Shown here piece by piece: positions 1,367-59,146 of a DNA stretch of 64,000 nucleotides (its first letter is position 1; each line of letters begins with the position of its first letter). Made by a program: the position numbers and the translations under genes. Source of the stretch: Octopus vulgaris (lineage: Eukaryota); assembly GCA_951406725.2 (NCBI GenBank), contig OX597841.1, positions 18,910,001 through 18,974,000 of the forward strand, written 5' to 3'. The notes beneath the pieces were generated by a model, which had not been told where the DNA came from, did not search any database, and saw only the letters and a list, made by a program, of their open reading frames with translations.

Positions 1367-1599
1367 GTCAGTCACATATAACTAACAACACACACATACA
1401 TACATACCTCCTGCGTGACCCCTCTGCCCGACATTCGCCACGATTGATCGCAGCCACTAAACCTTATTCTATTTTCTCTTCCTGTTTATTTCTGTGTTCC
1501 TTTCTGTCGAAGAGCGTAGGCTCGAAATGTAAAAGACTTTTACACTTCCCGAGCGTTAAACTAATACACCTGTTTGTTGTCTACACCACCTGTCTTCGT

Positions 1600-1955
1600 C
1601 TACAATGGAAATTGTAGTTGTGATACCTGTGCCGGGTGCACGTAAAAAGTACCACCCGAATGTAGCTGATGCCAGCGCCGCCTTGACTGGCTTCTGTGCC
1701 GGTGGCACATAAAAAGCACCAACCGATTGTGGATGCTGCCAGCCTCCCCTCGCACCTGTGCCGGTGGCATGTAAAAAGCACCCACTACATTCTCGGAGTG
1801 GTTGGCGTTAGGAAGGGCATCCAGCTGTAGAAACACTGCCAGATCAGACTGAAGCCTGTTGCTGCTTCCTGGCTTCCCAGACCCCGGTCGAACCGTCCAA
1901 CCCATGCTAGCATGGAAAACGGACGTTAGACGATGATGATGAGGATGATGATGAT
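1600..1955 (+). mobile_element. SINE/LINE-tail repeat family E (copies ~3600-3990, 28690-28830, 55290-55400, 63600-63880, all minus strand)
   Basis: GGCGTTAGGAAGGGCATCCAGCTGTAGAAA..CCATGCTAGCATGGAAAACGGACGTTA followed by a (GAT)n tail. Confidence 0.75.
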
Positions 1956-2209
1956 GTGTGCTCGTTCGGCAAGATCTTTAGAGATACCTCCCAATGCACC
2001 TATAACACCTGGCATACTTTTTACCCCTACATCCTATAGTCTCAGTAATTCAATACCTAAATTCTGACACTTCGCTATTTTTCTATACCGCTCATATTTA
2101 TTTCTTCGTCTTCATCATTACTACTACTACTACTACTACTACTACTACTACTACTACTACTACTACTACTACTACTACTACTACTATTATTATTATTATT
2201 ATTATTATT

Positions 2210-2772
2210 ATTGAGTGAGAGCGCAGTGCATGCCATCAAAGTGACTCTGGGTTACAAATATACGAAACCCAGTATACCCTTCATGACTACCCACCTGATA
2301 AGGGTACACCAGGCACATGCATCACAACCATATGTGCGCGACATGATGATCTCATATCAAGATAAACAGCACATGACCTTGCAGGTGGGGGCCCAGTTAG
2401 AATTTTCTTCTGGTCGAGTAGCCCATCCCGCTGAAAAGGTCCCTGAATTAGGGCTGTTAAAGGATGTTGAACGAAACACCCATGTTTCCAAAGGTGAATT
2501 ATTCAAACCCCAAAGAATCCCTCTCAACACATGGCTATGATGCTCCCCCACTACTTCTGCTCGTGATCAGAGATGCACATATAGTCAGTCACTAAGGGAC
2601 ATGCTCAACTGGTTACGGTCAAACAACTGACAAGCAAATCTGTGGTATTGAGCAGAATATTTGCTGTAGCCCATCTTTTATACCAAGACAAAACAATGTA
2701 CATGATAACACTTCCAATCAGTTAAGATCAGAAGCCATGAGAGCCACTGCCTGGTACTGCATCAGGGCATTT
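2210..2772 (-). mobile_element. ~560-bp non-coding element D inserted in (TAA)n (copies 31137-31670 +, 62489-62995 -)
   Basis: Three clearly alignable copies, each abutting TAA repeats on the element strand; no ORF or tRNA head seen. Confidence 0.85.
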
Positions 2773-3167
2773 ATTATTATTATTATTATTATTATTATTA
2801 TTATTATTATTATTATTATTATTATTATTATTATAAAGTTGGCGGACCAACAGAATCGTTAGCACGCCAGGTGCAATGCTTAACAGTATTTTGTCTGTCA
2901 CTACGTTCTGGGTTCAAACTCTGCCGAGATAGATTTTTCCTTTCATCATTTCATGGTCAATAAATTAAGTAACAGTGAAATACTGGGGCCATTGCATTCG
3001 ACTAGTCCCCTTCCCCACAAAAATTTCAGGCCTTGTGCAAGAATTTGAAATCATTATTATCGTTGCTGTTGTTGTTGTTGTTGTTGTTGTTGTTGTTGTT
3101 GCTGCTGTTGTTGTTGTTGTTGTGTCTGTTCTCATGGTTGTTGTTATTGTTGTTGTTGCATTGACAG

Positions 3168-3267
3168 GAAACAGCGGAGAAACCATCAGCAAGGAAATGG
3201 CACACATTCCGGGCAGATGGCCAATGGCTCAAGAAGATCACATCCGGTGGTAGCGACAATTCTAAAG
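3168..3267 (+). CDS. Calpain gene 1 exon, start of domain III: ETAEKPSARKWHTFRADGQWLKKITSGGSDNSK
   Basis: gacAG acceptor, GTGAGA donor. Resembles KW...GxW...TAGGCxN of the calpain CBSW domain; 100 bp, phase 0/1. Confidence 0.88.
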
Positions 3268-56750: not shown

Positions 56751-57256
56751 ACCAATTTTTAATGCTTACTTACTTTTCAGTCGCTCTGTATAACGGGCTT
56801 CTTTCAGTTTCCGTCTGCCAAAACTACTCACAAGGCTTTGGTCGGCGCAAGACTATAGAAGAAGACACTTGCCCAAAGTACCACGCAGTGGGACTGAACC
56901 TGAAACCATGTGGTTGGGAAGCAAGCTTCTTACCACACAGCCATGCTTGAGCGTATGTGTGTGTGTGTGAAAGAGAGAGGGAGAGAGAGAGAGTGTGTGT
57001 GTGTGTGTGTGTGTGTGTGTGTGTGTGTGTGTGTGTGTGTGTGTGTGTGTCCAAACACTCCATGTTGTCACAACAAGAACCGATCGTGTTTGCTGGATCG
57101 ACATTGGCCAAACGTTTAAAGACAAGAGGTAGAGTCACATTAAAGAACGTAGCCCTAGATATGCCATGACATAATACAAATCTCTCGATAAATTCTCAGA
57201 TTCCCTTTCGATGCTTCTTGCCAATTTGTGCCGTTATCCATTCTGATCAATTGCAG

Positions 57257-57416
57257 GAATTTTCCGTTTCAATTTTTGGTGGTATGGAGAATGGAAAGAA
57301 GTGGTCGTCGATGACCGGCTTCCAGTTGACAGAATCACTCATAAAATACTTTATGCTCACAATAATTCAGAACCCGACGAATTCTGGGTGTGTCTCTTGG
57401 AGAAGGCCTACGCCAA
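57257..57416 (+). CDS. Calpain gene 2 exon: [23 protein letters not shown]...[12 protein letters not shown](K)
   Basis: ttgcAG acceptor, GTAAGA donor; highly conserved calpain motifs. This frame is absent from the supplied ORF track. Confidence 0.96.
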
Positions 57417-57687
57417 GTAAGACACCTCTCTCACTCTTTCTTTCTTTTTATACCTTTATTGTTCTTATATATGTATCTATGTACGTATGTACGGGCGCAT
57501 GTATATATATATATATATATATATATATATATATATATATATATATATATATATATATAATTTATATATAGAGGGCATTATTATACATACATGCCACACG
57601 CTAAGAGGGACAAAATTAGTCATTTCTACCAAAAATTTTACTAATCCCACCGAATGCAATTTTTCAAAGTAAGACATTTAAAATATG

Positions 57688-57734
57688 GACTTGTATCACC
57701 TGTGATTTCATACCTCTGTATTCATCAGCAAGTC
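57688..57734 (-). ncRNA. Minimal type I hammerhead ribozyme
   Basis: Minus strand GACTTG CTGATGA ATAC agag GTAT GAAA TCAC ag GTGA TA CAAGTC; all three helices pair perfectly, AUA triplet. Confidence 0.92.
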
Positions 57735-58640
57735 TGGACGTATCATAAATAAACGACCCTACATCGTCAAAGCCGGGCAGCCAACTGATCAACATCAACG
57801 ACGCACATGGGTTAGTTTACATATATTCCATCCGGTAAATGTCAGACTTTTACGAATTGCATTTCGGAAAAGGAAAAGTTTTTTCGGAATAAAAATTTAG
57901 CAATTAAGGACAACTTCTTAATAAGGAAAACTTAACAAGAAATTATCGGGTAGATAGCGTGAAAAACCTCATAAGAGAAAAAATTTCGAAAATAATTCTT
58001 TCTCATTGAACATATTAAATTTATATATATATATATATATATATATATATATATATATACATATATATTATATATATATGTATATATATATATATCCCCT
58101 CAACCCAAAATGCTGTCTGCGAGTGACATGACACAAAAATTCAAAATTTAAATAAAAAATAAATGGTTAGACCTCTATTACAATTTCGAATTTCGAAACC
58201 AAAAGTTGATCCATTCTCCTCGTCAGGAGAACATTCCTGTACTTAGAAATTAACACAAAAGACGTGCCTTGGAGCTTAACATGTGAGCCGACCGGCAAGA
58301 ATAAAGTCAAAGTCTATCCACACACAAATTCTGAATTCAAACATCATGCACGGTATTTATGGGAAGAGGAAAGTTAAGCGAACCTCGGCGAAAAACTGGA
58401 TATGATTGAAAAATAAATAAATTCCAACAAAGGACAAACAATTTATTTTTGTCTAAATTTTGAATTTTTATGTCATGTTGCTCGGCGACAACTTTTGTGG
58501 TTGAGGAGATATAATACAAGTGGTTTATAGTGGGTTTATAGCGGTTTTGACTTCTATTTCTAGTCATGTAAAGGTTTTTATAACCCTCTCTGTTATAATT
58601 GTGATTTATTCACAATCATACACTCTTCTTATATATATAT

Positions 58641-59146
58641 GTGTGTCTATGGCCAGCTGGAGGAGTGTGTCCTCCTGGGGCTAAAAACTACAGTAGCGTC
58701 CACCCTTAGGGGTTAGCCATATTGAAATGGCAAATATACGTCACGATGTGTTACCGCTACTGTAGATAACTCACTTTGATATTTATCATTGTTTGATTTC
58801 ACTTTTTCAATATCAGCGACAGTGGACGCTGGAAAAAGTATAAGTATTTGTGAAGGAAATCTAATTCTCGCCGACAACTGTGATTGTCACACGCTGACGA
58901 GAGGTCAATACCTCGAAACTCGAGTCCGTGTGTATCATAAGTTGAAGACGGGAAGGATGACTTCCCTTTGCAAATACTGACAGGACACAGAAAGTGTGTC
59001 TATGGCCAGCTGGAGGAGTGTGTCCTCCTGGGGCTAAAAACTACAGTAGCATCCACCCTTAGGGGTTAGCCATATTGAAATGGCAAATATACGTCACGAT
59101 GTGTTACCGCTACTGTAGATAACTCACTTTGATATTTATCATTGTT
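58641..59146 (+). mobile_element. HHR-containing partial tandem element (353-bp period, ~1.4 units) in (TA)n
   Basis: 58641-58793 recurs at 58994-59146; TA runs on both sides; HHR in the unique part. Confidence 0.85.
58888..58932 (+). ncRNA. Minimal type I hammerhead ribozyme
   Basis: CACACG CTGACGA GAGGT caat ACCTC GAAA CTCGAG TC CGTGTG: 6-bp helix I, canonical core, palindromic helix III, GUC triplet. Confidence 0.92.

Follow-up and report, generated by a model that had tools for sequence, protein, structure and literature searches.

The window analysed here is a 64,000-nucleotide stretch of the Octopus vulgaris genome (NCBI GenBank assembly GCA_951406725.2, contig OX597841.1, positions 18,910,001 to 18,974,000 of the forward strand), in which approximately 30 hammerhead-shaped motifs were found in and between two host genes. 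It has 37% G+C and consists of approximately 20% microsatellite. A calpain gene occupies 749-27503 (+, end approximate; located by tblastn, with the exon at 8235-8468 matching Octopus vulgaris calpain at 99%), and a tandem calpain paralogue, also located by tblastn, occupies 39026-63182 (+) and runs off the window. Since these two tandem genes span the window, the motifs are almost all intronic, with those at 31728-32703 and 33409 being intergenic. Using self-BLAST with microsatellites masked, alignments and manual grouping, we traced the motifs to approximately 23 insertions and approximately 14 families. We consider it highly probable that they are the 3' ends (pseudo-long terminal repeats, pseudo-LTRs) left by Penelope-like retrotransposons (Penelope-like elements, PLEs) and their non-autonomous derivatives.

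Motifs were identified with a descriptor of the type I hammerhead core, which required positions 3 and 8 to pair (C-G or U-A), allowed an optional extra base after A9, and demanded GAAA, UH, one pair closing helix III, and helices II and I of no fewer than 4 and 3 bp, respectively. With a perfect core, it gave 17 matches in the window, compared with a mean of 0.07 (maximum 1) per shuffle in 15 dinucleotide-preserving shuffles in 200-nt blocks, a drop in hit density of the kind that a first-pass annotation of this sequence had implied. With one core deviation tolerated, there were 27 matches, compared with 2.7 per shuffle (maximum 7); as the shuffles reach up to 7, a few weak one-deviation matches are attributed to chance. 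Neither the reversed nor the complemented window contained a perfect-core match, and 59 permuted decoy core boxes gave a mean of 0.08 matches (maximum 1). Helix III was at least 80% self-complementary in 16 of the 17 perfect-core matches, in agreement with the first-pass claim that nearly all are palindromic, and positions 3 and 8 were C-G in 10 and U-A in 7, never C-A or U-G. Because the descriptor does not demand palindromes in helix III and positions 3 and 8 occur only as pairs, we take the fold to be real. That the matches arose by chance in AT-rich, repeat-rich DNA is hardly credible: one-deviation shuffles do produce up to 7 matches and Rfam finds none, but the perfect-core excess, the empty reversed window, the decoys, the 3-8 pairing and the unrequested palindromes refute this for the set, while its weak members at 43525, 33409 and 58172 could still be chance.

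The first-pass annotation had listed 26 fold coordinates, and a hammerhead-shaped motif lies at or within a few bases of each. Seventeen of these have intact cores (16 descriptor matches plus the motif at 9683, which has a mismatch at the helix III base), seven have one deviation (A6U at 1501, 16160 and 26889; U4C at 7706, 11582 and 11636; U16.1C at 54490), and two (4851 and 55769) are more decayed. Two further sites had been called degenerate. At 43530-43637, the motif (43525-43640, -; local scan, weak) has a G8U core, a long helix II and a weak helix I. At 58170-58230, the core is intact and helix II is weak (58172-58230, -; descriptor and scan); this motif is plausible but the least certain of the 17 descriptor matches. 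Decayed motifs at 12541-12575 and 33409-33446 were additional to that list. The proposal of many families stands, with approximately 14 recognized, but the motifs are not independent, as the 30 or so derive from about 23 insertion events.

Intact cores occur in 12 insertions, at a density of one per 3.8 kb in the window. The G10.1-C11.1 pair is G-C in 11 of the 17 perfect-core matches and A-U or G-U in the remaining ones. An extra base after A9 is present in all eight copies of the commonest family (GAGC, named after its helix II) and in the 54489 motif, but in only 1 of the 17 perfect-core matches; when neither the extra base nor U3-A8 was admitted, a stricter descriptor retained only 5 matches in the window. 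Helix III ranges from a bare CG, which allows no monomer closure, to 4 bp as a monomer, and up to 12 bp as a dimer. Three of the 17 motifs analysed (17340, 26390 and 57728) could close a 4-bp monomer helix III; given this wide range, 'minimal and dimer-only' describes some families and not all, and the first-pass assignment to the minimal type holds to that extent. The distance to (TA)n is shorter for motif insertions than for positions drawn at random from unmasked sequence (median 137 nt for 21 insertions versus 312 nt, p=0.016). Candidate cores at 11347, 15191, 19071, 28654, 29833, 37623, 41175, 44190, 55219 and 62190 were rejected for lack of a convincing fold, and the A6C matches at 17454 and 17938, a single low-scoring match that appears twice because of a 484-nt tandem, are taken as chance.

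Four families have a motif located 3' of remnants of PLE coding sequence, at a distance of 180-620 nt (two Neptune-type, one Hydra-type and one Poseidon-type; these clade calls rest on motifs, not on a tree, and every copy is broken). The Neptune-type element at 47251-51544 (-), within (TA)n, is 5'-truncated and frameshifted at both ends of its open reading frame (ORF). Its reverse transcriptase (RT) and GIY-YIG frame (47999-50263, 754 aa) matches Pfam RVT_1 (E=1e-8) and GIY-YIG (E=0.005) and has 949 homologues. In an alignment, C626/C631/C634, C670, C673 and H692 are invariant and H709 nearly so; a CX2-5CxxC linker and, at the C terminus, a GIY-YIG with CCHH thus follow the RT. A hammerhead with a U3-A8 core (47337-47374) and a short tail form its 3' end. 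An inverted, 5'-truncated copy of this end at 51078-51544 is identical at 452 of 454 positions and carries a hammerhead at 51446-51483 (+). A frame at 50773-51171 (-), 5' of the RT ORF, takes its first residues from the inverted copy; what remains may belong to the N terminus, displaced by a frameshift, or to an ORF that the element carries upstream. The region 31728-32703, lying between the calpain genes, holds two non-coding foldback units composed of inverted 3' ends of the same family (80-95% to the Neptune end by self-BLAST) with one common junction. Their hammerheads lie at 31781-31818 (-), 32074-32111 (+), 32285-32322 (-) and 32577-32614 (+), and the units are predicted to fold into two hairpins of approximately 220 bp that would bury the motifs. 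The U3-A8 Neptune family comprises 6 motifs in 2 insertions. The second Neptune-like family (33409-33967, -; tblastn and local scan) consists of a GIY-YIG remnant at 33675-33967 with the decayed hammerhead at 33409-33446.

The Hydra-type 3' remnant (40674-42618, -) lies between (TA)n runs and has a GIY-YIG-like frame at 41427-42416 with CxxC and CxH; an intact-core hammerhead with a 12-bp helix II (40733-40812) is located approximately 620 nt downstream. For this frame, phmmer returned 2117 relatives at E<=0.001, where an earlier word-index protein search had given none, and an Atlas lead pointed to GIY-YIG clusters; DKT, the RT motifs and a CxCx5C linker were seen, by eye only, in the long relatives P0135 and P0168. 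A second Hydra-type GIY-YIG remnant at 61050-61700 (-) has a CxC...C linker split by a frameshift and no downstream descriptor match. The Penelope/Poseidon-type remnant (53400-54570, +) retains a broken RT thumb and GIY-YIG (tblastn to PLE proteins, E=2e-12), no Cys linker being visible in its translations, and is followed approximately 180 nt downstream by a hammerhead at 54489-54534 with an extra A and U16.1C.

As a positive control, 83 loci of related PLE RTs were scanned, giving 24 sense and 5 antisense descriptor matches, with sense matches in 21 of the 83 loci. Most lie outside the RT match, and they include U3-A8 cores and one inverted terminal pair. PLE-selected contigs contain one intact core per 11.3 kb, a lower density than in the window. 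An unrelated PLE (locus L077) has inverted U3-A8 hammerheads at both ends (95, -, and 4467, +), in the same layout as the Neptune copy of the window. Animal-type PLE RT-endonuclease loci were also recovered from three bacterial genome records (L081, L082 and L083, the last with a hammerhead at both ends), which are probably host contamination.

A retrozyme-like tandem at 17019-18416 (-), antisense in a calpain intron, consists of 2.9 units of 484 nt that are 100% identical (Tandem Repeats Finder), so that either the insertion is very young or the assembly has duplicated the unit. Each unit carries an intact type I hammerhead (17242-17348, 17726-17832 and 18210-18316); three consecutive units with three motifs exceed the two that define a retrozyme in Li, Clavereau and Pollet 2026. 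The 484-nt monomer has a fold z of -5.3, with a 19-bp perfect hairpin within hammerhead loop II. At 58635-59146 (+), sense in a calpain intron, 1.4 units of approximately 353-358 nt (direct repeat 152/153 identical, fold z=-7.0 for the 358-nt repeat) carry a single motif, short of two hammerheads; this motif (58888-58932) looks canonical, with a helix I of 6 bp, a helix II of 5 bp and a palindromic helix III. A family with a GGGG helix II is represented by two intact-core copies, at 9560-9790 (-, motif 9683-9743; self-BLAST, local scan and alignment) and 26258-26576 (-, motif 26336-26396; descriptor and alignment). A perfect 140-nt palindrome at 11558-11697 contains two U4C-core hammerheads, 11582-11619 (-) and 11636-11673 (+), found by self-BLAST and scan. 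Three hammerheads were detected by the descriptor as single copies in the window: 8870-8955 (-), with an intact core and palindromic helix III; 26718-26759 (-), with a U3-A8 core in a sequence that self-BLAST shows to be unrelated to the Neptune family; and 57688-57734 (-), with an intact core and a possible 4-bp monomer helix III.

The GAGC family has 8 copies of approximately 190-250 nt with an extra A and a CG palindrome, which were assigned by alignment together with the descriptor or self-BLAST. In five of them, core position 6 is U instead of A, a majority state that the first-pass annotation did not mention. The A6U copies, by descriptor, are 1421-1601 (+, motif 1500-1535; also by self-BLAST), 16062-16290 (-, motif 16160-16197) and 26807-26996 (-, motif 26891-26924), and, by self-BLAST, 4679-4962 (-, motif 4852-4887), which is decayed and has its own 3' tail repeated after it in inverted orientation, and 55700-55905 (+, motif 55768-55803), which has decayed further. 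The copy at 9078-9275 (+, motif 9152-9185; descriptor) has an intact core with a helix I of only 3 bp. A divergent subgroup comprises 7640-7834 (+, motif 7706-7740; descriptor), with an A6 core and U4C, and a decayed copy at 12530-12620 (-, motif 12541-12575; self-BLAST and scan). An alternative register for A6U, with C3U and a 3-nt shift, was discarded by eye because helices I and II lose pairing.

Mean pairwise identity among GAGC copies is 0.89 at constrained positions, 0.56 at free positions and 0.55 in the flanks, so the predicted conservation of the core above its flanks within a family holds for the largest one. Its helices are paired in 91.7% of cells with one C-G/G-C swap in helix I (reached in 17/500 and 227/500 shuffles, respectively; modest evidence). 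The flanks of the five U6 copies are 58-83% identical pairwise. Compared with their own majority, 5 of 110 constrained cells differ versus 144 of 791 flank cells (p=1e-4), or 81 of 477 cells when only the downstream flank is considered (p=5e-4), with the caveats that the copies are kin, some were found via the motif, and pyrimidine-rich flanks align poorly.

Public contigs were compared using the 26807-26996 copy as reference. At 80% likeness, 16148 records matched from a probable DNA run under one species label, and a further 279 from a possible RNA run under another. The private changes of this copy were registered at >95% in the matched contigs. Among the 40 of 88 variants listed, those within the motif fall only at N7 (12-20%) and H17 (25%), which are free in the consensus. 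Position 6 is not among these 40, and since those listed all reach approximately 20% in at least one run, A6 should lie below approximately 20% among matched contigs; the remaining variants could hold A6 at 8-20%. Summed contig depth should not be read as a copy number; its maximum, 9.0e6, falls on the GAGC motif, versus 1-3e3 on neighbouring repeats. Rough bounds are 1e4-9e5 copies, assuming a single-copy depth of 10-30 and an overlap of up to 30-fold, and 8 copies per 64 kb scale to 3.5e5. The exact pattern for the A6U family had 0 matches in metagenome contigs. Nearby, a moderately repeated sequence at 27000-27230, in which no hammerhead was detected, has a summed contig depth of 1-3e3 in run X3.

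What the A6U core does can be approached by analogy. A natural A6C hammerhead has a kobs of <0.1/min (PMC3088659), and an engineered A6C cleaves at 3.55e-6/min in Mg2+ and is rescued by Mn2+ (PMC7151607). By this comparison, the A6U core probably cuts poorly. We found no description of it in the available portions of hammerhead papers; Lunse et al. 2017, on PLE hammerhead variants, may already list it. The core positions conserved in otherwise diverged A6U copies suggest that the fold has been selected although cleavage is probably crippled, and for this family we favour the fold over cutting as the target of selection. An anole PLE fits this view: its hammerhead cleaved only with the protein, and insertion in vitro did not require it (PMC11167929).

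A6U could instead be a founder accident, in which a master copy lacking a working ribozyme was passively amplified with no selection on the fold. We hold this to be possible yet doubtful. In its favour, position-6 changes lower activity, as the A6C studies show (PMC3088659, PMC7151607), insertion without cleavage works in vitro (PMC11167929), and a U at position 6 is rare, with only 1 match in the 83 PLE loci. On the other hand, U6 copies differ in 17-42% of aligned flank columns and in 4.5% of constrained positions despite core CpG sites, and the variation among the public-contig variants listed lies at N7 and H17, whereas passive decay would not spare the core.

A different origin for the families without a coding partner, GAGC above all, would be as independent hammerhead-bearing short interspersed nuclear element (SINE)-like elements, comparable to Schistosoma SM-alpha and mobilized by long interspersed nuclear elements (LINEs). 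GAGC copies are indeed short, numerous, non-coding and alike at their ends, and 1279 'unclassified SINE' families are recorded in O. vulgaris (PMC13282606). We nevertheless regard this origin as unlikely, as the GAGC motif has the PLE-type extra A and CG palindrome also seen in the PLE-linked 54489 motif and in most PLE-locus matches, one copy repeats its tail in inverted orientation, a trait of PLE insertions, and the 5' ends differ among copies; ARAGORN found 0 tRNA genes in the window, though decayed SINE heads would escape it.

Several observations weigh against deriving all of these motifs from PLEs, or against their being numerous functional folds. For approximately 9 of the 14 families, among them the commonest, GAGC, the window contains no coding partner, and Pfam gives no match to the Hydra-type frame. 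The isolated hammerhead fold lies 2-9 kcal/mol above the minimum-energy fold for most motifs. An Rfam search of the window returned no hammerhead at the gathering threshold, and there was none among 150 of the 389 matches listed in an E-value search, where microsatellite hairpins dominate. Covariation within families is thin, the one two-sided pair being equalled by 227/500 shuffles, and because the copies are kin, p-values overstate independence. A raw-read run (X23) provided 5 reads, none on the GAGC core, and hence no support for a high copy number; the run seems uninformative, since none of its reads matched this DNA at >90%. Direct observation extends to the motifs and their families, the position 3' of PLE remnants in four families, the inverted Neptune copy with its tail, the tandem array and the conservation pattern. 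The PLE or retrozyme origin claimed in the first-pass annotation is thus direct for 4 of approximately 14 families and follows from architecture for the 484-nt tandem, while for the partnerless families it is drawn by analogy, from motif type and closeness to (TA)n. Its suggestion that much of the anonymous AT-rich sequence belongs to such elements was overstated: with hand-drawn bounds, they make up approximately 26% of the window and 32% of its non-microsatellite DNA.

Given a PLE origin, the following course of events may be envisaged from established PLE biology. The PLE RT-endonuclease would nick (TA)n microsatellites, and the element RNA would be copied from its 3' end, mostly with an early stop, so that every insertion would leave 200-500 nt that include the hammerhead, sometimes as an inverted or tandem pair. 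In tandem transcripts, two motifs could pair via the palindromic helix III and excise unit-length RNA (PMC4209133, PMC6765202). Little activity would be expected from lone genomic copies with a helix III of 2-4 nt, and hairpins would trap the foldback copies. Since lone minimal copies were inactive in PMC4209133 and foldbacks would be kept from acting, host pre-mRNA probably escapes cleavage, and most motifs in the window are likely relics that leave calpain pre-mRNA uncut. GAGC, the commonest family, appears to have spread with the A6U core, which suggests that its fold or dimer face matters more than cleavage.

Co-option by the host, with intronic self-cleavage regulating calpain pre-mRNA, appears very improbable. 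Two intact-core single insertions (9152 and 58888) are sense in introns, and the helices of 58888 are strong, but this motif has no cis dimer partner with a matching helix III, and the motifs come from many unrelated mobile families. Of the 10 intronic insertions that are intact and of a single orientation, 8 lie antisense, which is a trend short of significance (two-sided p=0.11; Fisher p=0.35 versus decayed copies).

Other features of the window include hammerhead-free short repeats with 6-11 overlapping self-BLAST matches each (e.g., 226-382, 7348-7501, 12125-12276, 29471-29627, 56351-56506 and 56793-56943). These resemble octopus SINEs. Non-LTR retrotransposon fragments lie at 25331-25642, 30337-30825, 45366-46186 and 52507-53058, with a zf-RVT match (E=1.5e-6) at 52510-53058 and a weak RVT_1 match at 45875, and a 32-nt minisatellite of 5 copies occupies 19228-19386. 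Both halves of the Octopus vulgaris model P0121 (1295 aa) map to exons of the two calpain genes, and it appears to fuse such a calpain pair into one protein.

Extending these results beyond the window, we advance tentatively, and as the less probable outcome, that octopus genomes hold hundreds of thousands of hammerheads (approximately 1 per 4-6 kb, tens of times denser than the animal tallies found) and that the commonest family is a natural A6U pseudo-ribozyme, in which selection maintains the fold and the palindromic dimer face as a signal by which the Penelope-like protein achieves recognition or pairing, and not for cutting. If true, the latter would directly address what PLE hammerheads are for. 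PLE hammerheads are poor cutters in vitro and absent from some clades, and insertion does not depend on their cleavage; A6U copies beside intact-core sisters offer a natural comparison that separates cleavage from structure. If the density of the window holds genome-wide, no richer source of natural hammerhead variants than the octopus would be known. Published totals for Schistosoma and Xenopus correspond to one motif per 110-235 kb, and the comparison with the window is biased, as the window was picked as striking and our descriptor is looser than published ones. The 17 intact cores in 64 kb stand against totals of approximately 2000 and 1300 in Schistosoma and 9000 in Xenopus (PMC4209133).

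A high density is nevertheless to be expected, because PLEs account for 191 Mb, or 6.83%, of the O. vulgaris genome, in 190 families (PMC13282606 supplement), and at a few hundred bases per fragment this corresponds to one end per 5-10 kb. With so many families annotated, the first-pass view that this population is under-annotated is borne out only in part; PMC13282606 does not mention hammerheads and leaves 15% as 'Unknown', in 1102 consensus sequences, and 9% as 'unclassified SINE' repeats, part of which the hammerhead could serve as a tag to classify. For octopus or cephalopod hammerheads in the literature, we found only an Rfam count of 235 in giant squid and no octopus census.

The motifs resemble the minimal type I PLE hammerheads of Cervera and de la Pena 2014 (PMC4209133), which have low, dimer-dependent activity and occur in opposite-strand pairs. 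Shared features include the type I fold, the palindromic 15.2-16.2 segment, an extra base between 9 and 10.1 in some families, the U3-A8 variant, and many heterogeneous families per genome, mostly as single motifs, with opposite-strand pairs 100-700 bp apart; the available portions of that paper contain no A6U family and no octopus. Published work thus already covers minimal hammerheads in PLEs, the U3-A8 core, an extra base following A9 and pairs on opposite strands, whereas the density and the abundant altered-core (A6U) family appear to be unreported so far. With respect to coding elements, the remnants agree with the PLE clades of Craig et al. 2021 (PMC8557442) in the C-terminal GIY-YIG, the CX4CxxC linker and CCHH of the long element, the CxxC and CxH of the Hydra-type remnant, the inverted truncated copy, the tail and the (TA)n targets. 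Retrozymes have already been published as PLE derivatives (PMC7229834; Li, Clavereau and Pollet 2026, 10.64898/2026.07.22.740005), in work whose available portions do not cover cephalopods. The 484-nt non-coding tandem, with a hammerhead per unit and a monomer that is strongly self-paired, is like their non-LTR retrozymes, and the 358-nt unit resembles a solo or partial dimer retrozyme; unlike retrozymes, only 1 of approximately 23 insertions has two hammerheads in consecutive units, and the 484-nt array is known here from DNA alone. Finally, the A6U and U4C cores recall the natural core variants A6C and U4C (Perreault et al. 2011, PMC3088659; PMC7151607), in which changes at positions 6 and 4 occur in normal folds with low activity, but the A6C of PMC3088659 is a single phage motif, whereas A6U predominates among the copies of a highly repeated family in an animal.

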